A stretch of 64,000 bases of DNA, from the sequence record ON184125. One strand, given 5' to 3'. A model generated the notes under the pieces. That model was not told the DNA's origin, did no database searches, and saw only the letters and a list, made by a program, of their open reading frames with translations. How positions within the stretch are numbered: the first letter of the stretch is position 1; each line of letters opens with the position of its first letter. The position numbers and the translations under genes were made by a program. This DNA is from Escherichia phage PC3. This document shows positions 18,753-47,254 of the stretch, one piece after another.

Positions 18753-19445
18753 ATGAGTGCTATGTCAGAACGCCTATTATCCACCCTCAGTGCTATCCAA
18801 GCGCGGGATGAGGTCGCTCAAGAAGTCATGGAGAAGACCTCGCCTATGGCCGGAAAAGATTACGATCCGGATACAGGCGAGTGGTTGGGTGAAAAGCCTG
18901 CGGGGTATGAGCCTGTGGTGTTTCCTCCTTCATTGGACCCAGAAGAGCTGAAGCCCAAGGAGTCTAAGGTTCCAGACTTCGAAGATACTGATGCCACCAC
19001 CGACTACAAACGCATCCGTGACACGACTTATGCCATGCAGGAAGCCACGATGTTCATGATGGGACAGGCAGCCAAACTTGCGACGACGACTGAAGCACCC
19101 CGTGCCTTCACAGTCTTCAAAGAGTTGGGTGAACTCATGCGCGGCCTGAACAAAGACCTGATGGAGAACCAGAAAACTATCAAGGCGGTCACGGGCGACA
19201 GAGAGCCACCTCCTGGAGATGAAACAACCGTCGAGGTCACCACGTCCCCTGATGGCACAACCACGGTCAACGTCGGTAAACAGGCCAGGTCTTCCCGTGA
19301 TCTACTGAAGACCATCGAAGACGCCCGTAAACGTGCTGAAGAACGTGCTGCAGCGAAAGCTGCGTCCAAAGGACCTGATCCCGAAGAAGATGTAATCGAC
19401 GTTCAGGCAGAGCCGAATGGAGAAGGTGAAGACGATGGCGTATAA
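18753..19445 (+). CDS. gp16: Terminase small subunit gp16
   Basis: Lies immediately upstream of and overlapping gp17; central region resembles T4 gp16; acidic C-terminus. Confidence 0.6.
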   Translation: MSAMSERLLSTLSAIQARDEVAQEVMEKTSPMAGKDYDPDTGEWLGEKPAGYEPVVFPPSLDPEELKPKESKVPDFEDTDATTDYKRIRDTTYAMQEATMFMMGQAAKLATTTEAPRAFTVFKELGELMRGLNKDLMENQKTIKAVTGDREPPPGDETTVEVTTSPDGTTTVNVGKQARSSRDLLKTIEDARKRAEERAAAKAASKGPDPEEDVIDVQAEPNGEGEDDGV

Positions 19446-21642
19446 AAAAGAGATAGATTGGGCACCAGAGAAAACTGGTTTTAAAACACCAGACGTCAGA
19501 CTGCGTATGGACCAAACGTTCATGCGCAAGCCGTCTGTGCGCGCTCCTCGTGTGGAGTTGATGCTAACCGACGAACAAGAATCGGAGTTCGTCGAGTGCG
19601 CGATGGACGCCCATTACTTCGCCGCCAACTACTACAAGATCACGACCATCGATAAAGGCTTCATCCTCTTTGACATGCACGATTACCAGAAGCAGTTGTT
19701 CCATGACTTCCAGGACTATCGATTCAATGCGGTCGTCCAGGCTCGTCAGTCTGGGAAATGTGTAAAAGGTGACACGCTTGTCACAGTTTACGATACTCTC
19801 AGCCAAGAGCAGTTGCTCCTGACCATAGGGGAGCTTCACAGCCGCTTCGAGAACGTCAACCACGCTGTGCCGCTGAATACCATTGGCAACCACGACAAGT
19901 TCGTGGACAGCCGCTTCGGCAAGCGTTACTTTGTGCAATCCGATAGTGGCTGGGTTCCGGTTATCGCAGCGCATAAGACGAAGAAATATGCGGAATTCGT
20001 TATTGTGACTGTTACTGGGCGTCGAATTAACGTGGCCGACGAACATATATTCTTCACTCCGGAAATGAAGGAGATATTTGCCAAAGACCTGAATGCTGGG
20101 TCATACATCATGACGTCAGAAGGTCCAGAAGAAATCCGCGAGGTTTGGCAGACTGGTGAGACGCATCACATGTATGACCTACAGGTGAAATCTAGTGATC
20201 AGCGCTACTACACCAACGGCTTCCTCAGCCACAACACGACAGTCGTGGCAGCGTTCCTGCTCTGGTATGCGATGTTCCACTCCGACAAAGAGATCGCAGT
20301 ACTGGCGAACAAAGAGAAGCAGGCGATTGAAATCCTAGATCGTATTCGCAAAGCATATCAAGATTTGCCATTCTTCCTCCAACAGGGTTGTGAGAAGTTC
20401 GGTTCCACGCTGATCGAGTTCGAAAACGGATCAAAGATCTACGCCTATGCGACATCTTCCGACTCCATCCGTGGTCGATCCGTATCGCTCCTGTATGTGG
20501 ACGAAGTGGCGTTCATTGAAAACGACTTTGAATTCTGGGAGTCTACATTCCCGGCGATTGCATCTGCAGAGACTTCACGTTGTATTCTGACCAGTACGCC
20601 GAAAGGTCAGCGCGGGTTGTTCTACGACATCGTCACCAAGGCGAACCCAGAACATCCACAATACAACGACTTCAAACTCACAGAGGTCCCATGGTATCGT
20701 GTTCCAACGTACACCAAAGATCCAGACTGGGAATCCAAACAAAGGGCGAAGCTGGGTGATGCACGTTTCGATCAAGAATTTGGCATTAAGTTCCGTGGTT
20801 CTGTGGGATCACTGATACCTGCCAAGTGTCTGGACAAGATGACCTCGAAGCTGTATCAGGAGCCGAACGAGTTCACCAAGATTTATCACGACTACGATCC
20901 TAAGCGCATCTATATGGGTATCGCAGATACAGGCAAGGGTGTCGAAGGGGATTATTCTGTGCTGACCATTATCGACATCACAGACTATCCTCACAAGATC
21001 GCAGCCAAGTATCGAAATAACACGATACCTCCAATGATGTACGCGTACACAATCGCCGATATGGGTGAGAAGTATGGAACATGCCCGATGCTAGTCGAGA
21101 CCAACAACGACGTGGGTGGTCAGGTAATCACAATTCTATATCAGGAAATTGAATATCCCGAGATCATCTTCACCACAACAGATACCAAGGGTACAGGCAA
21201 GAGAATCGGTGGTCGCCGCCCTGAGCCTGGTATCAATACCAACAAGAAGGTGCGCACAAACGGCTGTGCCAACCTGAAAGCCTTGATTGAACGTGAAATG
21301 CTGGTGATAGATGACCAGGACACGATAGATGAACTCAGTACATTCGTATGGACTGGAACAAGGTATGAAGCCGATGATGGTTGTCATGATGACTGTGTAA
21401 TGCCCCTCGTGTTGTATGCATGGGCGGTGAAACAAGAATGGTTTAGTGATCTCACCAATTCAAATATCTCTGTGGACATGAGAGGACGGTTGTCTGCGAT
21501 GGAAGAATCTCAGATGCTACCATTTGGGGGTATGATGTCGACGCCAGATCCTCACTCTGTGGAGAACATCTCAGGGTTCGGTGGAATTCAGGTTTATGAT
21601 GAACGCTCTGGTATGTCTATGGAAGAATGGCTGAGACGGTGA
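19435..21642 (+). CDS. gp17: Terminase large subunit gp17, intein-containing
   Basis: Split Walker A (ARQSGK...TTVVAAFLLWYAMFH), Walker B LLYVDEVAF, strong colinearity with T4 gp17 once residues 115-273 are removed. Confidence 0.9.
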   Translation: MAYKKEIDWAPEKTGFKTPDVRLRMDQTFMRKPSVRAPRVELMLTDEQESEFVECAMDAHYFAANYYKITTIDKGFILFDMHDYQKQLFHDFQDYRFNAVVQARQSGKCVKGDTLVTVYDTLSQEQLLLTIGELHSRFENVNHAVPLNTIGNHDKFVDSRFGKRYFVQSDSGWVPVIAAHKTKKYAEFVIVTVTGRRINVADEHIFFTPEMKEIFAKDLNAGSYIMTSEGPEEIREVWQTGETHHMYDLQVKSSDQRYYTNGFLSHNTTVVAAFLLWYAMFHSDKEIAVLANKEKQAIEILDRIRKAYQDLPFFLQQGCEKFGSTLIEFENGSKIYAYATSSDSIRGRSVSLLYVDEVAFIENDFEFWESTFPAIASAETSRCILTSTPKGQRGLFYDIVTKANPEHPQYNDFKLTEVPWYRVPTYTKDPDWESKQRAKLGDARFDQEFGIKFRGSVGSLIPAKCLDKMTSKLYQEPNEFTKIYHDYDPKRIYMGIADTGKGVEGDYSVLTIIDITDYPHKIAAKYRNNTIPPMMYAYTIADMGEKYGTCPMLVETNNDVGGQVITILYQEIEYPEIIFTTTDTKGTGKRIGGRRPEPGINTNKKVRTNGCANLKALIEREMLVIDDQDTIDELSTFVWTGTRYEADDGCHDDCVMPLVLYAWAVKQEWFSDLTNSNISVDMRGRLSAMEESQMLPFGGMMSTPDPHSVENISGFGGIQVYDERSGMSMEEWLRR
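19759..20235 (+). mobile_element. Mini-intein (159 aa) inserted in the terminase Walker A P-loop
   Basis: Begins with Cys after SGK (CVKGDTLVTV), ends ...MYDLQVKSSDQRYYTNGFLSHN followed by Thr; excision recreates SGKT. Confidence 0.8.
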
Positions 21643-24086: not shown

Positions 24087-24114
24087 ACCCCGCTGAGGCG
24101 GGGTTTTAGTTTTC
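24087..24114. terminator. Terminator hairpin between convergent genes
   Basis: accccgc-tgag-gcggggt plus TTTTAGTTTT. Confidence 0.5.
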
Positions 24115-25890
24115 CAGTTCATACCGGATAAGACCACACCCCCAGATACGCCCCAACCCGGCTTCTATCGCCAGCATATCCTCTGTTTTACCTTCTACAT
24201 TGTATCCAAGTTTAAGGAATTTCTCTTTCCTGAAATTGAATTTGTGTATACGTGAGCCATAGTCTGGAGTCACATATTTGTAATCAGGGGGAAGGATTTC
24301 CTTTTCAACAAATCCGTTATTCAGGTAAACATTTTTCAGACGACTGACAACACAACGATCACCAAAAGAATATACTGTCTCACCCCGATGTCGAGCGATA
24401 TAATATTTCAGTAAGCGTGAGAATGCGCCATGACAATTGTTAGAAGCAAATCTCACCAATTCAATACCATGCGTCCGTTTGGTAAACAACATCACCGCCT
24501 GGATATTCCCAGTTTTGTCTACAAGGTGTATATAATCTGTCGCCACCACACCACCTTGTATATGGAATCGGTCGAGAAAGTCCTTGGACGTCCTATAGGA
24601 GCCTTCTAAAATGATATGTTGGCGAGCGTATGACAATGGTTTCCCTATCCCCAATTTTGCTTTAAGGAGTGATTTAACCACTTCCCGTTTGTCACGCCAC
24701 TCATCTTCCCAGATATGGATTAATTGAATACCCTGGGCTTCACAGTACATGGTCTTTTCAAGATGGTAGTCTTTGTATCGATGTTTCTCTGTATGCCAGT
24801 ACAAGCCGTTAAATTCTATTGCCAACTTATGTTCTGGGCAGTATATGTCTATCTGGCGTGTGGTCACCCTTCCGTCGAACATTTTACCTCTGAGGACGGA
24901 GAAATTACCAGATTCGCATATAACACCCAATGAATCCAGGTATGAACATATTTCTATTTCTGGCTGCGTTTGGCTTTGGCTGCTGGGGTACGTGAAAGAG
25001 TTCCTATATTCTTCAGAAGAGAAATAGTGAGGTACGCCGTATTTTTCTTTTGAAATGATCCTGGTATTGACCTGGCTTCTATCCCATATAGCCTTTACCT
25101 TCAACGGATAATCAACCCCATATTTTAAGACGCATGTTTTCTTTCTCTTTTCTATAATGGAATTGAGGAACATTGGATGATCCACACCATAGATCTTCCT
25201 CCAAGTCTCAATCACCCTTTCCCTCACTTCTGGCATTTTCATGACGTGTGATACGCCATAGCGTTCCATGACGGAAGCAGCCACTCTGTCCTTTATAACA
25301 TCAGACTTCATAGGGTGGTCGACCCCATATTTCTTAAGGACAGTTTCCCGCGACTTTTGTTTTACTTCTTCCAGTTGGAATGTGTTGGCTACGCCATATT
25401 TCTCTGATATGGCGTTTTCTAGGTTGACCCGTTCTGAGCCTCCCGCCTTCATTGATTTTCGTTGGCATTCTTCGGAACAAAACTTTTTGTATCTGGGTGG
25501 TTGGGCTTCCATTTCTAAGCCAACGTCAGCACCGCAAGTGACACACTGCGACTTCGGAATATCGTACAGCCAAGCAGTTATCGCTTGTGGTTCTTCTAAT
25601 AGGTCGTTGTGTGACACCACGTATCCAACAACATCAACCCCAGTATGGGCCGTGAGTAGGGGATGAGAGATAAGTTTGTAGTTCAACGAACCATCTTTCT
25701 TCCTGAGTTTACTATCAACCCAAGAGCGGCATTCGGTTTCGGTCGTCGGGATGTTATCCAACAAACCCGGATTGCGTTTCATCGTTCCCAGCATGAATGA
25801 TTTACATTCGTCACTACAATACAACGCAGCCTTCCTGGTTGGGGTGAACGGTTTGTGGCAGCATGAACAATTTTTATCGGGGAATGGCAT
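24106..25890 (-). CDS. Homing-endonuclease-like protein 1: two zinc ribbons, KYGV repeats, PD-(D/E)XK (Vsr/DUF559-like) domain
   Basis: CxxC pairs, repeated KYGVxHP units, IDIYCPEHKLAIEFNGLYWH...IHIWEDEW nuclease-like motif; paralog of 31887..33875; inserted between gp18 and gp19 on the opposite strand. Confidence 0.55.
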   Translation of the reverse strand: MPFPDKNCSCCHKPFTPTRKAALYCSDECKSFMLGTMKRNPGLLDNIPTTETECRSWVDSKLRKKDGSLNYKLISHPLLTAHTGVDVVGYVVSHNDLLEEPQAITAWLYDIPKSQCVTCGADVGLEMEAQPPRYKKFCSEECQRKSMKAGGSERVNLENAISEKYGVANTFQLEEVKQKSRETVLKKYGVDHPMKSDVIKDRVAASVMERYGVSHVMKMPEVRERVIETWRKIYGVDHPMFLNSIIEKRKKTCVLKYGVDYPLKVKAIWDRSQVNTRIISKEKYGVPHYFSSEEYRNSFTYPSSQSQTQPEIEICSYLDSLGVICESGNFSVLRGKMFDGRVTTRQIDIYCPEHKLAIEFNGLYWHTEKHRYKDYHLEKTMYCEAQGIQLIHIWEDEWRDKREVVKSLLKAKLGIGKPLSYARQHIILEGSYRTSKDFLDRFHIQGGVVATDYIHLVDKTGNIQAVMLFTKRTHGIELVRFASNNCHGAFSRLLKYYIARHRGETVYSFGDRCVVSRLKNVYLNNGFVEKEILPPDYKYVTPDYGSRIHKFNFRKEKFLKLGYNVEGKTEDMLAIEAGLGRIWGCGLIRYELEN

Positions 25891-31886: not shown

Positions 31887-33875
31887 ATGATTCATATATG
31901 CCGGACATGCAAAACCTCATTCGTCAATGCCCAGTCAAAGGCCGTCTACTGTAGTGTTGATTGCAGAACCTTTTACCAAACAGTTGGTATCAAATTCTCC
32001 CCAGAGTTAATGTCGGACGCCAAATTTATTCAAACTGAAGATGACTACAAAGACTTCATCCGTGAATATTTCTATATGAAGAATGGCAACCTGAATTACC
32101 AACTACTATCTTCACCCCTGTTGTCATCTTACCTTGGCGTAGACCCCCTCAAATATGCCAACCAGCACAACTCTGAAGAATCCGTGAACACCCGTGTATT
32201 GGTCTGGTTACACGACGTCAAACCAACACCTTGTATCACCTGCGGTGCTAGAACTTCTGTCGAGATTAAGAAGTCTATCCCATCCTACCGGAAATATTGT
32301 TCGGAGGAATGCTATGCCCAATCAATGAAGTTGGGTGGTGAAGCCCGTAAAGTCTTGGACAAGACAATACTGGACAAATATGGCGTGGAAAACGTGTTCC
32401 AGGATGAATCCATAAAAGGGAAGGCACGGTTGACCATGCTGCAGCGTTTCGGCGTAGAACACATTATGCAGTCTGAAGAGGGGCGGCAGCTATTCAGAGA
32501 TTCCGTTATGGAAAAATATGGGGTTGAGCACCCGATGCAGTTGGAAGAGATCAAACGGCGCGCATGGGATACCCTCGGTGCTCGGTCTTGGTATGCTACT
32601 TCAGAAGGTAAAGCTGCGCGGGAGAAGGCATTTGGTGGATACCAAGGCGGTCATCCGATGCGTGACAGGGGTGTTATAGAGAAGATAATCTCAAACAATC
32701 TCAAGCGGTATGGTGTTGAATGGCCTGCTCAAGACCCTGTTATCAAAGCTAAAGTTGTAGACACCATGTTGGAAAAATATGGTGTGTCCCACCCATTACA
32801 AATACCAGAAGTGAAAGCCAGAGTCAAACAAAGTCACCAAACAAAGTACGGTAGATTCTATTTCAATAGACATGAGGTTATGTTATTGGCTTCGGAACGT
32901 TCTAAAGAGACATGTGTTAGAAAATATGGTGTACCATATGCGTTGCAGAACAAATCCATGTGGGAACACATTACGTCATCCCTTAATTCGAAATCAAAAC
33001 CAGAAATAGAAATATCTGATTGGCTCACTTCAATGGGGGTTGCCCACAAATGCTCCGACTTCACCCTCCTAAACAATATGAATTGCCAGGACGGTGGAAC
33101 TCGACGCCAGATAGACATCTATTGCCCAGAACACAAACTGGCAATAGAATTTAATGGCCTGTATTGGCACAGTGAGATACACAAATATCGCCGTTATCAT
33201 CTCGAAAAGACAGAGGCATGTGAAGCACAAGGCGTTCAGCTGATACACATCTGGGAAGATGAGTGGCATAACAACCCAGAGATCGTGAAAGGGTTGCTGG
33301 CTGCCAAACTCGGGATCAAGAAGCCATCCGGGTACGCCCGTCAGTGTTATGTAGAGGAAGGTAAGAAGTCGGATATTCTAGAACTCCTGGCCTCTCAACA
33401 CATACAGGGCACCATTCATTCGGCCACGCATTACCTTCTCCTCAGAGATAAGAGAGACAACCGGGTTCGGGCTGTCATGACCTTTATCAAACGTGTGGTG
33501 AAGGGGGAACAGTGTATGGAACTTACGAGGTTTGCCTCCGACGGCATTCACGGGGCGTTCTCTAAACTGCTGGCGTACTACAAGGAACATCTCTGGGATG
33601 GCGTGAAGACTTTCTCCTTTGGCGATAGGTGTGTTGTTAGTCGGTTGTCCAACATTTACCTTTCTCACGGGTTCGTCGAGGAAGAAATACAAGACCCGGA
33701 TTACAAATATCACAAACCAGGGACTCTCATGCGGGAGCACAAGTTTGGATTCAGAAAGGCAGACTTTGCTCAGATGGGCTATGACGTAGAAGGTAAGACA
33801 GAAGATCAGTTAGCAACCGAAGCCGGGCTGGTCAGGATTTGGAATTGTGGACTGATCAAATATGTCTTGAACTAA
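31887..33875 (+). CDS. Homing-endonuclease-like protein 2 (paralog of 24106..25890)
   Basis: Same architecture; stretches such as RQIDIYCPEHKLAIEFNGLYWH are identical in both proteins (~88% DNA identity there). Confidence 0.55.
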   Translation: MIHICRTCKTSFVNAQSKAVYCSVDCRTFYQTVGIKFSPELMSDAKFIQTEDDYKDFIREYFYMKNGNLNYQLLSSPLLSSYLGVDPLKYANQHNSEESVNTRVLVWLHDVKPTPCITCGARTSVEIKKSIPSYRKYCSEECYAQSMKLGGEARKVLDKTILDKYGVENVFQDESIKGKARLTMLQRFGVEHIMQSEEGRQLFRDSVMEKYGVEHPMQLEEIKRRAWDTLGARSWYATSEGKAAREKAFGGYQGGHPMRDRGVIEKIISNNLKRYGVEWPAQDPVIKAKVVDTMLEKYGVSHPLQIPEVKARVKQSHQTKYGRFYFNRHEVMLLASERSKETCVRKYGVPYALQNKSMWEHITSSLNSKSKPEIEISDWLTSMGVAHKCSDFTLLNNMNCQDGGTRRQIDIYCPEHKLAIEFNGLYWHSEIHKYRRYHLEKTEACEAQGVQLIHIWEDEWHNNPEIVKGLLAAKLGIKKPSGYARQCYVEEGKKSDILELLASQHIQGTIHSATHYLLLRDKRDNRVRAVMTFIKRVVKGEQCMELTRFASDGIHGAFSKLLAYYKEHLWDGVKTFSFGDRCVVSRLSNIYLSHGFVEEEIQDPDYKYHKPGTLMREHKFGFRKADFAQMGYDVEGKTEDQLATEAGLVRIWNCGLIKYVLN

Positions 33876-39522: not shown

Positions 39523-41031
39523 ATGGCAGACATTCAGATTGTTAAGGTTAACGAAGTCCGCATGCGTTGCATCGCAGATCTTTCTATCAGGGAAGAACTT
39601 AATGACTACTTCAAATTCGAAGACCCGAACTTCGTTCCCAACCCCTTCTCTAAATGGGACGGGGTTGTCCGCCTATTTACCAAGTCATCTGGTCTAATCG
39701 ATATCGGTCTGCTGTTTGAGGTATTTAAGTTCTGTAAGAACAACGGATACACCATTGAACTGGATCCGGCACTGAAGTACATTCAGGACATCCCAGATGA
39801 AGAAATCCGTGAATTCATCGACAGTCTGCATCCAAAGATCCGTACCGAAAATCACGAATATATCGATGCCGAGACTCGTGACTACCAGTACGACACCATC
39901 GCCAAGGCTATGCGTCAAACCAGATGCGTCTGTGAACTGGCTACGAGTGCCGGTAAGTCCTTTATTCTGTATGTCATGGCGCGGTACTACAGGCGGCGCA
40001 GAGAAGCTCTCGAAAGTCCTCTGAAGACGCTTATCGTGGTGCCGTCAATCCACCTAGTCACTCAGCTGTACGACAACTTCGAAGAGTATGCGCATGGCAG
40101 TGATTGGAAGCCCGTTGTTAACACCCAGCTGATTTTTGAGGGCGCGACAAAGGAGATCAGCAAACCAATCGTCATCAGCACATGGCAAGGCATTCAAGAC
40201 CAGCCGAAGGAATGGTTCCACCAGTTCGGTGATATCGTGGTGGATGAAGTGCACACCTCCAAGTCTGAGAAACTGTCTTACATCCTAAACAACTGCATCT
40301 ATGCCGACCAGCGCCTGGGGGTTACAGGTACGCTGGCGAATACCAAAGTTGCCGGGCTTCAGGTGGTGGCTCACTTCGGGGCGTACCATAAGATCATCAC
40401 GGCTCGCGATCTCATCAATCTCGGGTACGCCACTGACATCAAAGTGAAGATGATTCAGCTGAAGCACACTCCGGCGGATGCTGTTGGTCTGGACGGGGAT
40501 TATTCCAAGGAAATAGAATACCTCATTACACACCAGTCCCGCAACGAACTGATCGCCAAGATGGCACTGAATCTGAAAGGAAACGTGGCCATCATGTTCG
40601 AGCGTATTGATGGTCACATGATGGTCGTGTATGATATGCTGAGCGCAGTCAAGCCCAACGTGTTTGTCATCAACGGGGAAGTGAAGATCGAAGACCGCCG
40701 CCGCATACAGAAAGCGATGGAGGATGGAGAGGACATCACCCTGTTGGCATCATACGGGACAATGCAGCAGGGAGTGTCGATCAAGAAGCTACACCACCTT
40801 GTACTGGCACACCCGAGCAAGTCATATATCCGCGTCATACAGACATTGGGTCGTCTGATGCGTCAGCACTCCTCTAAGGACGTCGCGTGGATATGGGACT
40901 TAGTGGATGATGCATCGTACAACGCCAGCACGAACCACACTCTTAGGCACTCTCACGAGCGTTACAAGTTTTACCTGGCAGAGCGCCACCCCGTGGAGTT
41001 CATGAAGGTGGCGCTGGGTAATCACGATTAA
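39523..41031 (+). CDS. uvsW: UvsW-like SF2 DNA helicase
   Basis: ELATSAGKS Walker A, VVDEVH DExH box, helicase C-terminal motifs; CTAAATA upstream, consistent with late expression of T4 uvsW. Confidence 0.8.
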   Translation: MADIQIVKVNEVRMRCIADLSIREELNDYFKFEDPNFVPNPFSKWDGVVRLFTKSSGLIDIGLLFEVFKFCKNNGYTIELDPALKYIQDIPDEEIREFIDSLHPKIRTENHEYIDAETRDYQYDTIAKAMRQTRCVCELATSAGKSFILYVMARYYRRRREALESPLKTLIVVPSIHLVTQLYDNFEEYAHGSDWKPVVNTQLIFEGATKEISKPIVISTWQGIQDQPKEWFHQFGDIVVDEVHTSKSEKLSYILNNCIYADQRLGVTGTLANTKVAGLQVVAHFGAYHKIITARDLINLGYATDIKVKMIQLKHTPADAVGLDGDYSKEIEYLITHQSRNELIAKMALNLKGNVAIMFERIDGHMMVVYDMLSAVKPNVFVINGEVKIEDRRRIQKAMEDGEDITLLASYGTMQQGVSIKKLHHLVLAHPSKSYIRVIQTLGRLMRQHSSKDVAWIWDLVDDASYNASTNHTLRHSHERYKFYLAERHPVEFMKVALGNHD

Positions 41032-41759: not shown

Positions 41760-42428
41760 ATGCAAGAGATCACTCTCTCCGAACGTACACTTCAGTTGCT
41801 GGCCAACTTTGAGACCATCAACCCATCTATCGTTCTGACACCGGGCAAGATGCTGCGCAGTATTAATGATTCTTCTACTGTGATCGCCGTGGCGCAGATC
41901 GAAGAAGACTTCCCGTTTGAGTTCCCGATTCTGGACCTGACCAAACTTCTGGCCATCCAGCGCCTACCTTCCTTCAAAGGTGCCAAAGCCGAATTCCATC
42001 AGGACTACATCCTGTTGAAAGGCGAAAGCTCTCAGCTGCAATTCTGGCGTTCTGCTAAAGAACTCACGGTTGTCCCGGCTGATACTATTGAACTGCCGTC
42101 TGTCGACTTTGAAGCGATCATCACTCCAGAGAAGATGAAAGAACTGACCCGCGCCTGTTCTACCCTCGGACACAAGACTGTGCGCCTGGTTGCTCAGGGT
42201 GGCAAAACTCGCCTGGTTGCAACCACCACTACCCTGGACAACTCCAACAACTACACTGTTGAGCTGGGCGAAACCGCGCTGCCGGACTTCGTAATGCCAC
42301 TGGATGTTGCCAACCTGAAAATGATCGAAGGCAACTACACTCTGCGTGCATGTGCTGATCTACAAATGGTGAACTTCCAATCATCCGACGCGACGATCAA
42401 TTACTTCGTCGGCGCGCAGATTGAGTAA
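41760..42428 (+). CDS. gp45: Sliding clamp gp45
   Basis: LLANFETINPSIVL matches T4 gp45 LLKNFATINSGIML; 222 aa; gagga SD. Confidence 0.85.
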   Translation: MQEITLSERTLQLLANFETINPSIVLTPGKMLRSINDSSTVIAVAQIEEDFPFEFPILDLTKLLAIQRLPSFKGAKAEFHQDYILLKGESSQLQFWRSAKELTVVPADTIELPSVDFEAIITPEKMKELTRACSTLGHKTVRLVAQGGKTRLVATTTTLDNSNNYTVELGETALPDFVMPLDVANLKMIEGNYTLRACADLQMVNFQSSDATINYFVGAQIE

Positions 42429-42509
42429 TCAATCTCCAGCCTGATGCTATAATGTGTGGGCGGGGGAGTTCCCCGCCTATTTGAAATGATTCTTCTACAC
42501 GAGGCTGAA

Positions 42510-43166
42510 ATGAGGAACCAACCGTTTGTATATCATTTGTTAGGGAAGGATGGTTCTTTCTATTTTGGTTCTAGAACGAAATTGGGTGCACATCCTTTAC
42601 AATTGTTCACTTCATATTTCACTTCTTCACAAACAGTCAAGGAAATCATATCTAAGAAAGGTTCTGATTTCTTTGATGTAGAATTCGTAGAACTGTTTGA
42701 CTCCCCAGAAGAAGCATATTGGAGAGAGCAGCAGTTGATTAGTGAGAACATTGATCACCCAAAATGTTTAAACAAATCATTTCAGCCACTGGGTTGTGGT
42801 ATCGCCAACGGTAGGTCAGCGGGACCCAAACATCACCGAGTTGGTGTCTCGAGTTGGTTGAAGGGTAAGTCTGGGAATCTTCATCCCATGCACGGAAGAA
42901 CTGGTAAAAGTCACCCCGCCGCAGGAATAAAACCTTGGGACACCGGGGCTGCGCTGCTACACAACACCAGACCGATGTGGTTAAAGGCTGGGGTAGTGTA
43001 TGATCACTGGGTTTCTACTGGTGATGGGTGCCATAGAATTGCCCGTTTGTTCTCTATCAAAGAGAACACCGTAACGAGTATGTTAAACAAATTCAAAGAG
43101 GGCTGGAACCCGTATGATGACGACGCTTGGGTTCTGTTCTGTAAACTATATCATGGAAATACATAA
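42510..43166 (+). CDS. GIY-YIG homing endonuclease (Seg-like) with NUMOD-like C-terminal repeats
   Basis: VYHLLGKDGSFYFGSRT...EEAYWREQQLI GIY-YIG core; inserted between gp45 and gp44. Confidence 0.75.
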   Translation: MRNQPFVYHLLGKDGSFYFGSRTKLGAHPLQLFTSYFTSSQTVKEIISKKGSDFFDVEFVELFDSPEEAYWREQQLISENIDHPKCLNKSFQPLGCGIANGRSAGPKHHRVGVSSWLKGKSGNLHPMHGRTGKSHPAAGIKPWDTGAALLHNTRPMWLKAGVVYDHWVSTGDGCHRIARLFSIKENTVTSMLNKFKEGWNPYDDDAWVLFCKLYHGNT

Positions 43167-44155
43167 TGTCTAATATCACGATTGTAAAAGACCAGTACGC
43201 CTGGGAGAACCGTTTCCGCCCTGACAACCTGGACGAGATTATCATCCCTCAAGACGTCCGCGCTAAAATCCATGGCTACATCACCAGCGGTAACGGCAAC
43301 ATCCCGTCTATGCTGTTTTACTCCCCTCAGCCTGGTACTGGCAAGACCACTTCTGCTTTGGCCGTGTGTAATGAAATCGGTTGTAAGCAACCACTGATGA
43401 TCAACGCATCCCTGGACAACAGCATCGACGTTATCCGTGACCGCGTGATTCAGTATTCTACTGGTGTGAGCGTATTCGGTGGCCGCAAAGTCGTTATCCT
43501 CGACGAAGTAGAGCGTCTGTCTATGGCGGCACAGGAGTCGCTGAAGGGTATTGTGGAGAAGGTCTCCAAGAACTGTTCATTCATCTTGACCACCAACGCC
43601 AAGCAACGTGTGAACGAACCTCTGCGCTCTCGTTGCCGTGAAATCGACTTTATCTGGAATGAGGCTGAGGCTGATGAGGTAAAACTTCAGTTCATGCGCC
43701 GCTGTGCTGAAATCCTTCGCAGCGAAGGTGTTGAGTATGACCCTCCTGTGTTGGCTGCTATTGTCAAGCGCCATTTCCCTGATAACCGCCGCATCATGGG
43801 TGTTCTACAGGATAACGTCACCACTTACGGCAAGATCGACGAACGTGCACTGGCTGTGTTAAAATCGGCCGATATGGGCATGTTGGTGAATATGTTGAAG
43901 GATAATGACTGGGCTGGGATGAAGCAGTGGGTGACCGACAACCAGAACTATATCACTGAAGACTTCTATTCCCGCTTCTTCCAGTTCTGTGTACCACAGG
44001 ATAAAGAGAAGCAAATGTTGGTTCAGAATGAGTCTATCCCTGATCTGGTGTGCGTATGTGGTCAGTCTCAGATTGAACACCGTCAAGTCGGCGATGTCTG
44101 GCTGCATGCTGTGTTTTTCCTGACCAATGTCATGCTCAACATCAAGTGGAAGTGA
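43166..44155 (+). CDS. gp44: Clamp loader large subunit gp44 (AAA+)
   Basis: Walker A PQPGTGKTT, ILDEVERL box, sensor motifs; start overlaps the seg stop. Confidence 0.9.
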   Translation: MSNITIVKDQYAWENRFRPDNLDEIIIPQDVRAKIHGYITSGNGNIPSMLFYSPQPGTGKTTSALAVCNEIGCKQPLMINASLDNSIDVIRDRVIQYSTGVSVFGGRKVVILDEVERLSMAAQESLKGIVEKVSKNCSFILTTNAKQRVNEPLRSRCREIDFIWNEAEADEVKLQFMRRCAEILRSEGVEYDPPVLAAIVKRHFPDNRRIMGVLQDNVTTYGKIDERALAVLKSADMGMLVNMLKDNDWAGMKQWVTDNQNYITEDFYSRFFQFCVPQDKEKQMLVQNESIPDLVCVCGQSQIEHRQVGDVWLHAVFFLTNVMLNIKWK

Positions 44156-44611: not shown

Positions 44612-45076
44612 ATGGCGCGTAATACGCTAGACATATTGAATATTTCAGCAGTCAACGATGAGGCCAGCATCGTTGATTGTATGGTTGAAGTTCAATTGAA
44701 CCAAGATCGGCCAGGTATATTCCTGGGGATCAAGGAAACACTGAGTCGAATTGGGGTAAACACGCGCCAAGAGCCGAATACTCTGTATCAGACTTGCCAT
44801 ATTCTTCATAAGTGTGGCAAGTATTATATCGTCCACTTTAAGCATCTATTTATGCTGGACGGGCATTACAACGGATTTAACCGCGAAGATGTCCTGAGGA
44901 TGAACCGAATCATCAAGCTGCTGGAGCAGTGGAACATGGTGAAGGTCATTCATCCTGAGCAGGTCACCGAAGCAGCCGATATGTCTCGCATTAAAGTGGT
45001 TAAACACGATCAGGTTCCTGAATGGAAACTGGTTCCAAAATACATCATCCGGCCTACGAAGGCAAAAAGCGAATAA
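44612..45076 (+). CDS. regA: Translational repressor RegA
   Basis: LYQTCHILHKCGKYYIVHFKHLFMLDG and EWKLVPKY match T4 RegA; start may be an internal Met. Confidence 0.85.
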   Translation: MARNTLDILNISAVNDEASIVDCMVEVQLNQDRPGIFLGIKETLSRIGVNTRQEPNTLYQTCHILHKCGKYYIVHFKHLFMLDGHYNGFNREDVLRMNRIIKLLEQWNMVKVIHPEQVTEAADMSRIKVVKHDQVPEWKLVPKYIIRPTKAKSE

Positions 45077-45092: not shown

Positions 45093-45965
45093 ATGACAAC
45101 TACATTTTCCAAGAACGTGAATCTGAATCTGGCTTTCGGTAATGCAAAGGGCGACGTCACATCGCCCGACTTTGGTAAGATCCGCAATCAGGCGAAACTG
45201 GTGCTGGAAGAAACCCGTGAACTGCTGGAAGCGGCGTATTTCGACCACGAGGTGAAAATTGAGTTCACTGCATCTCCGCGAGTCCTGAAAGAACCCGTTG
45301 TTGTCGACATCAAAGACATTATGCGCCAGATCATGGATGCCCAGGGTGACATCACAACAGTCAACGACGGCGTGGCTCATATTGCTGGTTTCGACGGTGA
45401 CGAATGCCTACAGCGCGTGTATGCCTCTAACATGAGCAAGTTCATCCGTAATGAAGGTGAAGTTGTGCCAGCACTGGATTACTACTACAACAAAGGATTC
45501 CCACGCGAAAGTCTGCGCATCGAAGGGGAATTCCCTCAGGCGTGCATCAAAGTGGTAGACACCATCACCGTCGACGGCAAAGAGTACCCGGCTGGCAAGT
45601 TCCTGAAGAACATGGCAACCTTCAAAGAGCCGGACTTCTCTGATATGTTGACCGCCGAGCCTAAGCGCCAGATCACTGAAATCATTCTGACGGGTACGGC
45701 CATTCCAGGCCAGCTCGGTTCTAACGAACACGCTGGTGTTGCCTTCGCTCCGTTCGATTTTATTGACGAGATCATGGGATACACCAAGATGGGCTTCCAG
45801 GCGTTCTCTGGCGAAACAGTCGAGAGCTACATTCCCGTGTTTGTTTTCAATGAAGACAACTTCCCAACTCTACCGTTGATCTGGGGTGAATGGAAAGCCA
45901 ACGTCCGTATCTATGTGGCCAGCCCAGTGCAATCATCTATCACCCAACTGACCCGTATCGATTAA
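45093..45965 (+). CDS. Hypothetical protein (290 aa; N-terminus faintly MazG-like)
   Basis: LEETRELLEAAYF resembles a MazG helix; no further support. Confidence 0.4.
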   Translation: MTTTFSKNVNLNLAFGNAKGDVTSPDFGKIRNQAKLVLEETRELLEAAYFDHEVKIEFTASPRVLKEPVVVDIKDIMRQIMDAQGDITTVNDGVAHIAGFDGDECLQRVYASNMSKFIRNEGEVVPALDYYYNKGFPRESLRIEGEFPQACIKVVDTITVDGKEYPAGKFLKNMATFKEPDFSDMLTAEPKRQITEIILTGTAIPGQLGSNEHAGVAFAPFDFIDEIMGYTKMGFQAFSGETVESYIPVFVFNEDNFPTLPLIWGEWKANVRIYVASPVQSSITQLTRID

Positions 45966-46033: not shown

Positions 46034-47254
46034 ATGAAAGATAAAGCCCTGGACGTCCCGTACTGCGGTGTCCGTGAAGAAAAGATAAAGTCGGCCAAAC
46101 CGGTTCTCAGTCCGACCCATACCAGCCTGTCTTACGAATGGATGCGCGATCGTTATCAGATCCACGTCAAGAAGGACGTCCAGCGCCTTCCTGCTCCTTG
46201 GACTGATAATCCCATATTACGGCAGGTCAAGTTCTGTAACGTCCGGAGAGAGCACGACAGGCAGTCTCTCAACCTGATCAACAACATCGTCAACAACGAT
46301 GCTCTGGGTATGGCCGACAAGATGTTCAACTGCGTGATGTTTCGCATGTTCAACCTCTGGGATCCAATCCAGGCTATCGGCGGCGCGATGACGATCAAAG
46401 AATTCGCCGAGATCAACCTCGATGCAACCCGCGAACGACTTCAGAAGTTCGAGGCCGACGGCGGTAAGGTATTCACCAATGCCTTCAACACGGGCGGCCT
46501 GAAGCAATGCCTGGCTTTCCCTGAGATGGTTGTCAACCACAAGGAGCAGCGCTTCGGTGGGATGATGGTGAATCTGATCTGTAAAGATGGTTCAACCCAG
46601 AACATGGATTATAAAGAAGCCAAGGCGATAGCCGAAGCAGAACCGGACTTCTACACCATCGAAGGTTGGGAACCGTACATGCCAATGCGTGTCATCCGCT
46701 CCCTGAAGGCATTCGTCAACAAGTATCCAAATTATTTCCATGACCTGCTGCGCCTTGGTACTCCTTTGGAAGTATACCAGCGCATGTACGACGACATCGA
46801 AGGGCTTGGTCCATTCCTGGCCTATCAGATCTGGGTAGACTTCACTTACATTCCTGAATATCCTTTCAGTGAGAACCACTTCACGGTTGCTGGACCAGGC
46901 TGTCGCGCAGGGATCGACCTGATGTTCCAGGACAAAGATGGCATGACGCATGAAGAATGCATCTTCTGGTTGCGGGACAATCAGGACGCGGTTTATGGCC
47001 CTCTTGGGTATAACAGGGAAGAATTTTGGTCTGCGGAAGAGCCTTGGGATCGCCATTTAAATATAATGGCAGGAGAAAATATGTTTTGTGAACTTCAGAA
47101 ATATACCCGTTGTGTAGAGGCCATACAGCAAGGTAAAAAGCCGCGCGGGAAGGTTGGATATGACGGCGGTGGGGAATACAAAAAGCGCTGTGATGAAGTC
47201 GTGCTCAAACGTGGTTCCGTCAATTTGCTGGACCGTTTGAAGAAACCTGAATAA
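46034..47254 (+). CDS. Hypothetical protein (406 aa)
   Basis: Long ORF, no motif recognised. Confidence 0.5.
   Translation: MKDKALDVPYCGVREEKIKSAKPVLSPTHTSLSYEWMRDRYQIHVKKDVQRLPAPWTDNPILRQVKFCNVRREHDRQSLNLINNIVNNDALGMADKMFNCVMFRMFNLWDPIQAIGGAMTIKEFAEINLDATRERLQKFEADGGKVFTNAFNTGGLKQCLAFPEMVVNHKEQRFGGMMVNLICKDGSTQNMDYKEAKAIAEAEPDFYTIEGWEPYMPMRVIRSLKAFVNKYPNYFHDLLRLGTPLEVYQRMYDDIEGLGPFLAYQIWVDFTYIPEYPFSENHFTVAGPGCRAGIDLMFQDKDGMTHEECIFWLRDNQDAVYGPLGYNREEFWSAEEPWDRHLNIMAGENMFCELQKYTRCVEAIQQGKKPRGKVGYDGGGEYKKRCDEVVLKRGSVNLLDRLKKPE

Follow-up and report, generated by a model that had tools for sequence, protein, structure and literature searches.

Free-standing seg and mob endonuclease genes have been described as promoter-less cassettes that are associated with co-conversion and marker exclusion (PMC2988022), and none of the 12 free-standing endonuclease genes of T4 is located between genes 45 and 44 (Table 1, PMC2988022). 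The gene described here, which separates the analogues of these two genes in an Ackermannviridae phage, shares with T4 Seg (SegA-G) a GIY-YIG domain at the N-terminus that belongs to the SegE-type Pfam family. As is the case for seg genes, it is a promoter-less cassette between conserved essential genes that is distributed sporadically and is accompanied by linked flanking markers. The hosts differ, being T-even phages (Tevenvirinae) for Seg and Ackermannviridae here, as does the distance over which the enzymes appear to act: the cleavage sites described for T4 Seg enzymes are hundreds to thousands of base pairs away, whereas the linked tract at our locus is only ~50 nt long, suggesting that cleavage occurs near the insertion point. 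I-TevI, the endonuclease of the T4 td intron, is intron-encoded, unlike the gene studied here; its sequence similarity to our protein is marginal, and no zinc finger is evident in the linker of the latter.

Within the same phage family, 14 homing endonucleases have been reported for Dickeya phage LIMEstone1; one of them, the I-TevI-like F-LimVI, shares 36% identity with our 218-aa protein. F-LimVI and the GIY-YIG genes of PhiSH19/'barely'-type Kuttervirus are the closest annotated paralogues (36-41% identity over ~95% of the length); they are likewise free-standing and I-TevI-like, but are found elsewhere (ORF114, some genes downstream from regA) and presumably recognise another target. Orthologues at the same insertion site, with 81-94% protein identity, are present in Salmonella phages allotria (NC_049501), rabagast (NC_049499) and KE31 and in Yersinia phage CAU_YEP3, where the label 'homing endonuclease' stems from automated, PHROG-style annotation only. 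In the records of PH4, YX22, SP-9-14 and SW16-7 the gene is called 'hypothetical protein', a label that can now be upgraded in these and other genomes, and the papers that we found do not discuss the gp45-gp44 endonuclease locus. While the gene is another member of a well-known class of mobile elements and changes no concept of the field, it is mildly interesting for its apparent capture of the start of an essential gene, its very short linked tract and a full series of alleles from invasion to decay.

The window that we analysed, 64,000 nucleotides long, is identical to the first 64 kb of the genome of Escherichia phage PH4 (ON184126.1) and is numbered as in that record. The original prediction placed a Seg-like GIY-YIG gene at 42510-43166 between the genes for the sliding clamp (gp45) and the clamp loader (gp44), and the ORF as well as both of its neighbours were recovered by sequence, PHROG and Pfam analyses. 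As to the gene names, the clamp and clamp-loader identities hold (PHROG 223 and PHROG 168). Since the phage belongs to the Ackermannviridae (Aglimvirinae) and is ViI-like with a T4-like replication module rather than T4-type, gp45 and gp44 denote analogues by T4 nomenclature. The features of the locus are as follows.

41760-42428, + strand: sliding clamp gene (gp45 analogue), upstream neighbour; 222 aa; PHROG 223, E=1e-64.
42456-42480, + strand: G+C-rich hairpin (GGGCGGGGG/CCCCGCC) and then TTTG; RNA fold with a 10-bp stem.
42501-42504, + strand: GAGG Shine-Dalgarno sequence, 5 nt upstream of the ATG at 42510.
42510-43166, + strand: free-standing GIY-YIG endonuclease gene; ATG at 42510, 218 codons, TAA at 43164-43166.
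43164-43168, + strand: stop/start overlap TAATG, in which the endonuclease TAA shares one A with the gp44 ATG (43166-43168).
43166-44155, + strand: clamp-loader large subunit gene (gp44 analogue), downstream neighbour and candidate target; 329 aa; PHROG 168, E=1.5e-104; Pfam AAA and Gp44_lid.
44612-45076, + strand: homologue of the RegA translational repressor; Pfam Translat_reg, E=2e-34.

The Pfam gp45-slide_C match of the sliding clamp is weak, and record ON184126 annotates the gene as sliding clamp; downstream of the gp44 analogue lie a small clamp-loader subunit gene (gp62-like) and then the RegA gene. The TAATG overlap, which had also been predicted correctly and in which the shared A is at 43166, is the same in 14/14 genomes that carry the endonuclease gene. 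Since only a weak GGA precedes the gp44 ATG and this ATG overlaps the endonuclease stop codon, translation of gp44 is probably coupled to that of the endonuclease ORF.

As judged from the junction alignments, GAGG 42501-42504 serves gp44 in phages without the endonuclease gene and the endonuclease gene here. We prefer the start at 42510 to that at 42486 because GAGG lies 5 nt upstream of it and because the 657-nt CDS is annotated in five other deposited genomes. Both the start at 42486 (the GenBank choice for PH4, with the product name hypothetical protein) and a GTG at 42456 were rejected: they are without a Shine-Dalgarno sequence, overlap the hairpin and fall in a stretch that is native spacer in phages lacking the gene. 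The hairpin itself is found in phages with and without the endonuclease gene, being conserved in A221, Ag3 and AV101, and by this comparison is native spacer outside the insert. A consensus scan detected no promoter or terminator specific to the cassette.

That the gene is an insertion, as originally proposed, is borne out by the junctions in relatives, where an exact insert stands against an empty spacer of 81 nt.

42513-43168, + strand: insert relative to relatives without the endonuclease gene, 656 nt; its ends are ambiguous by the 4 nt AATG (42509-42512, 43165-43168).

The gp45-gp44 spacer measures 81 nt in A221 and Ag3 versus 737 nt in PH4. At the left junction, ...GAGGCTGAAATG is followed by TCTAAT (gp44) in phages without the gene and by AGGAAC (the endonuclease gene) in PH4. 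Across the whole site, empty alleles read ...CACGAGGCTGAAATG and then directly TCTAATATC, the ATG being the gp44 start, whereas in PH4 ...CACGAGGCTGAAATG is separated from TCTAATATC by AGGAACC...CATAATG. Aligned in this way, the cassette sits exactly after the native gp44 ATG. It follows from the exact 656-nt insertion that the endonuclease ORF starts at the former gp44 ATG and uses the gp44 Shine-Dalgarno sequence, and that the 3' end of the cassette provides the present start codon (ATG) of gp44. The position is intergenic, between conserved genes and outside any intron or intein, with the 81-nt spacer as the empty site.

The 218-aa protein matches PHROG 314 ('homing endonuclease') over its full length (E=4e-16), and three more 'homing endonuclease' PHROGs match its C-terminal 80 residues. 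In single-sequence Pfam searches it remains below the curated cut-offs, with 18 bits for SegE_GIY-YIG (PF19835; cut-off 25) and 14.5 bits, E=0.044, for GIY-YIG (PF01541; cut-off 22.6), and there is a weak HTH match near the C-terminus. An NCBIfam search with the protein gave no match, and PDB sequence searches with either the single protein or a 61-sequence profile gave nothing relevant. Exhaustive HMMER searching of 1.8 billion representative proteins, which was needed since a word-indexed protein search returned 2 close homologues only, yielded 770 homologues at E<=1e-3. SegE_GIY-YIG (PF19835) is matched at E<=1e-3 by 43/61 aligned homologues, and NUMOD3 by 22/61.

In the 61-sequence alignment all homologues share Y36, E73 and N88, Y8, Y18 and G20 are each found in 60/61, and residue 22 is R in 50/61 and K in 9. 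The GIY-YIG motif residues, i.e. the GIY Tyr, the YIG Tyr-x-Gly, the conserved Arg, the catalytic Glu and the Asn, are all present in our protein. We take their spacing to parallel that of Y6/Y17/E75/N90 in I-TevI; the spacing of I-TevI R27 is not matched by Arg22, so that the catalytic arrangement is only partly mapped, and an hhalign comparison of the family profile with I-TevI, to which we give no weight, reached a probability of just 36% and mis-aligned the catalytic Glu. An AlphaFold model built from the alignment (mean pLDDT 82, both terminal domains 88 or above) predicts a three-stranded sheet flanked by helices, i.e. the GIY-YIG fold. The protein can be divided into three parts.

42510-42794, + strand: N-terminal GIY-YIG nuclease domain, aa 1-95 (FVY8...FY18FG20SR22...Y36FTSS...E73...N88).
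42795-42959, + strand: linker with two NUMOD3-like repeats (SGNLHPMHG, TGKSHPAAG); low confidence, pLDDT 46-63.
42960-43163, + strand: predicted C-terminal helical helix-turn-helix DNA-binding domain, aa ~151-218.

The NUMOD3-like repeats were read from the sequence and from the homologues, 22/61 of which have their Pfam NUMOD3 match in the linker region. I-TevI and the T4 Seg enzymes have the same modular layout, in which a nuclease domain is joined to a separate domain, here a putative one, that binds DNA and confers site specificity. The reading of the gene as a GIY-YIG homing endonuclease thus agrees with the original prediction, with PHROG 314, the Pfam matches of the homologues, the conserved motif residues and the modelled fold all pointing to it. 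We put the probability that the ORF product is a free-standing ('intronless') homing endonuclease, with proposed homing at gp44, at roughly 85%; judging from its sequence, the protein is presumably a nuclease.

The gene is not universal at this position, being carried by 15/264 Ackermannviridae records with the allotria gene as query and by 15/217 records with that of PH4. The 15 carrier records represent 13 distinct isolates, two of which have duplicate RefSeq copies. The closest relatives, namely A221 (98.4%), AV101, RPN242, Ag3, SKML-39 and ~140 Kuttervirus genomes, lack the gene and have the 81-nt spacer instead. IMG/VR holds 14 relevant contigs, mostly of the same isolates, and a single metagenome scan gave 2 contigs. 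At the nucleotide level, the gene copies of PH4 (Aglimvirinae) and allotria (Cvivirinae, Kuttervirus) are 94.5% identical, and their flanks much less so, with 76% (gp45), 68% (spacer), 74-81% (gp44) and 71% (gp62). On these sequence comparisons, the gene has been transferred across subfamilies.

Position and orientation are the same in every carrier, as would also be expected if the gene, instead of having been inserted, were an old accessory component of the replication module that most lineages have since lost. Such a history would, however, need very many independent base-perfect deletions, each restoring the GAGGCTGAAATG-TCT junction, and the one loss that can be observed, in LIMEstone1, is imprecise and left a scar. 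Moreover, the gene tree conflicts with the flanks (94.5% versus 68-81% identity), and the 5' half of the gene, encoding the N-terminal nuclease domain, is deviant in composition (38-40% G+C versus ~50-53% in the flanks). We find ancestral presence barely credible, and the distribution led us to reject a core replication accessory gene.

The ORF is intact in 14/14 carrier genomes and dN/dS is 0.12-0.19 in six pairwise comparisons, including one with a divergent variant at dS ~1; together with the 770 homologues, this argues that the ORF is more than a chance reading frame. Purifying selection (dN/dS about 0.14) also means that the protein is useful to something, and a domesticated, non-mobile GIY-YIG nuclease or DNA-binding protein could serve the phage without homing any longer, for instance through control of the clamp-loader operon or through the breakdown or exclusion of DNA from the host or a competitor. 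Use of the strong gp44 ribosome-binding site and the location in the replication operon next to regA would suit such a role, and possible host benefits of free-standing endonucleases have been discussed (PMC2988022). Yet the gene is missing in ~94% of related genomes, some of which are as much as 98-99% identical, it has crossed subfamilies with a short linked gp44 block, and it has decayed in one lineage, which is the pattern expected of a self-spreading element; marker exclusion and homing are, besides, the same molecular act. We consider domestication unlikely and retain the homing endonuclease as the preferred reading. The gene copies of rabagast and S115 appear to be recombinant, being mostly of the PH4/allotria type with a 3' end (C-terminal residues from about 162) that matches the divergent YEP3/LIMEstone-remnant type.

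In LIMEstone1 and in metagenome contig ERZ1027019 only the last 48 nt of the gene are left, directly upstream of gp44.

LIMEstone1 segment 3729-3832 and ERZ1027019 289-336: 48-nt endonuclease scar.

The deletion joins two AATGA microhomologies and has removed the original gp44 Shine-Dalgarno sequence as well. If start-codon capture is read correctly, clean loss of the cassette would be hard, and the LIMEstone remnant keeps just the 48 nt. That this remnant is exactly the 3' end adjoining gp44 would also fit a catalytically dead relic, kept because gp44, which is essential, would lose its ribosome-binding site and its translational coupling if the cassette were deleted: the cassette carries gp44 translation signals, which constrains clean loss, and the nuclease-domain Pfam scores are sub-threshold. 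A relic would not be expected to stay intact in 14/14 carriers with dN/dS of 0.12-0.19 even at dS ~1, nor to retain all of the family-conserved residues (Y8, Y18, G20, R22, Y36, E73, N88), and the recent cross-subfamily spread (94.5% versus ~75% identity) favours recent activity. We regard a dead gene as very unlikely, and an active homing endonuclease remains our reading. On that reading, the locus would be a clear natural record of every stage in the life of a free-standing endonuclease gene, which invades, spreads between subfamilies, is accompanied by linked changes that confer immunity and finally decays, leaving a scar. The LIMEstone1 annotators placed a 'putative middle promoter' on the scar stretch.

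The start of gp44 travels with the endonuclease gene.

43166-43215, + strand: first ~50 nt of gp44, candidate co-conversion tract.

PH4, YX22, SP-9-14, SW16-7 and pSal-SNUABM-02, Aglimvirinae carriers of different backgrounds, are identical from the gene through 43215 (gp44 nt 50). By 43231 these same five carriers are back to their own backgrounds, and on the left side background variants reach up to 42500. Linked flanking markers of this kind would be the co-conversion sign of a Seg-like endonuclease, seen here in comparative evidence rather than in crosses. Across 38 genomes, position 43207 (gp44 codon 14) is G (GAG) in 14/14 carriers and A (GAA) in 22/22 empty and 2/2 remnant alleles, an association that is confounded by shared ancestry, comprises ~three independent clade contrasts, and may, at least partly, reflect hitch-hiking rather than immunity. 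The patch at 43201-43215, GCC TGG GAG AAC CGT TTC (N-R-F), is common to 12/14 carriers; most empty alleles read GCA/GCG TGG GAA AAC AAG/AAA TAC/TAT (N-K-Y). From these alleles we infer that the patch is the recognition/cleavage region and that carriers are immune.

Several alleles complicate this picture. The ~30 nt that separate the gene from the shared patch are native in Kuttervirus carriers, a poor fit to a single simple conversion tract, and the YEP3-type variant (77% nucleotide identity) keeps AAG TAC at codons 16-17. CGC TTC is found without the endonuclease gene in A221, RPN242 and LIMEstone-type genomes. Over gp44 codons 5-17, the endonuclease-free A221 and RPN242 have the carrier-typical K8/R16/F17 allele, except that codon 14 is GAA and codon 16 is CGC; such a carrier-like allele may be left over from an earlier occupation of the site or may be resistant by nature.

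A mechanism that would account for these features can be proposed. The promoter-less cassette would be transcribed with the gp44-gp62-regA unit, the endonuclease would be translated from the Shine-Dalgarno sequence and start codon of gp44 itself, and gp44 would be re-initiated at the TAATG overlap from the 3' end of the cassette. Upon co-infection by a carrier and a non-carrier, the enzyme would cut the allele that lacks the insert, the likeliest site being in the first ~50 bp of gp44, near codons 12-18 (GCA TGG GAA AAC AAG TAC CGC), and phage recombination would repair the break on the carrier template, copying the gene and with it the next ~50 nt, at the start of gp44. In carriers the altered stretch, with GAG at codon 14 and, mostly, CGT TTC at codons 16-17, would prevent self-cleavage. 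Both the cut position and the homing event are what we infer from comparing alleles, and the comparative data yield a concrete, testable target-site prediction in gp44 codons 12-18.

It is tempting to see a distinctive integration strategy in this arrangement, in which the element lands exactly on a start codon, appropriates that ATG and the associated ribosome-binding site from an essential replication gene and ties gp44 translation to its own 3' end, in which the cut falls within ~50 bp of the insertion point, unlike T4 Seg, and in which a single synonymous G/A at gp44 codon 14 is a main immunity determinant; we put this forward tentatively and find it doubtful as a whole. T4 RegA represses translation of gene 44. 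Since the endonuclease gene owns the former gp44 initiation region, capture of that region might possibly put the endonuclease under RegA translational repression. Just downstream of regA lie, at 46034-47254 (+) and 45093-45965 (+), the gene for a 5-hmdU DNA kinase (Pfam HMUDK_hel, E=2.5e-79) and its neighbour, which encodes a MazG-like pyrophosphatase. From its gene content, the phage DNA probably carries hypermodified thymidine, so that any homing endonuclease here would have to cut modified DNA.

Ackermannviridae phages are widely used in biocontrol against Salmonella, E. coli and Dickeya. Elements of this type drive local mosaicism of the replication module, which affects phylogenies based on gp44 or gp45. 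A second presence/absence polymorphism of a selfish element is found ~2 kb from the endonuclease locus: uvsW is split in LIMEstone1 by the annotated I-LimI element (segment 1123-2022) and is uninterrupted in PH4 (39523-41031). Elsewhere in the window, the large terminase subunit (19417-21642, +; 741 aa) has a Pfam Intein_splicing match at aa 134-234, upstream of its Terminase_6N and 6C domains, which at 28.3 bits is below the cut-off of 35.8 and is consistent with the mini-intein of the original prediction. Two genes of 561 and 621 aa (24106-25794, -, and 32010-33875, +) have DUF7487 matches and weak DUF559/MTES_1575 (Vsr-like PD-(D/E)XK) matches and are both labelled 'homing endonuclease' in GenBank; they adjoin the tail-tube gene and follow the major-head gene, respectively, like the Hef-like F-Lim genes of LIMEstone1.
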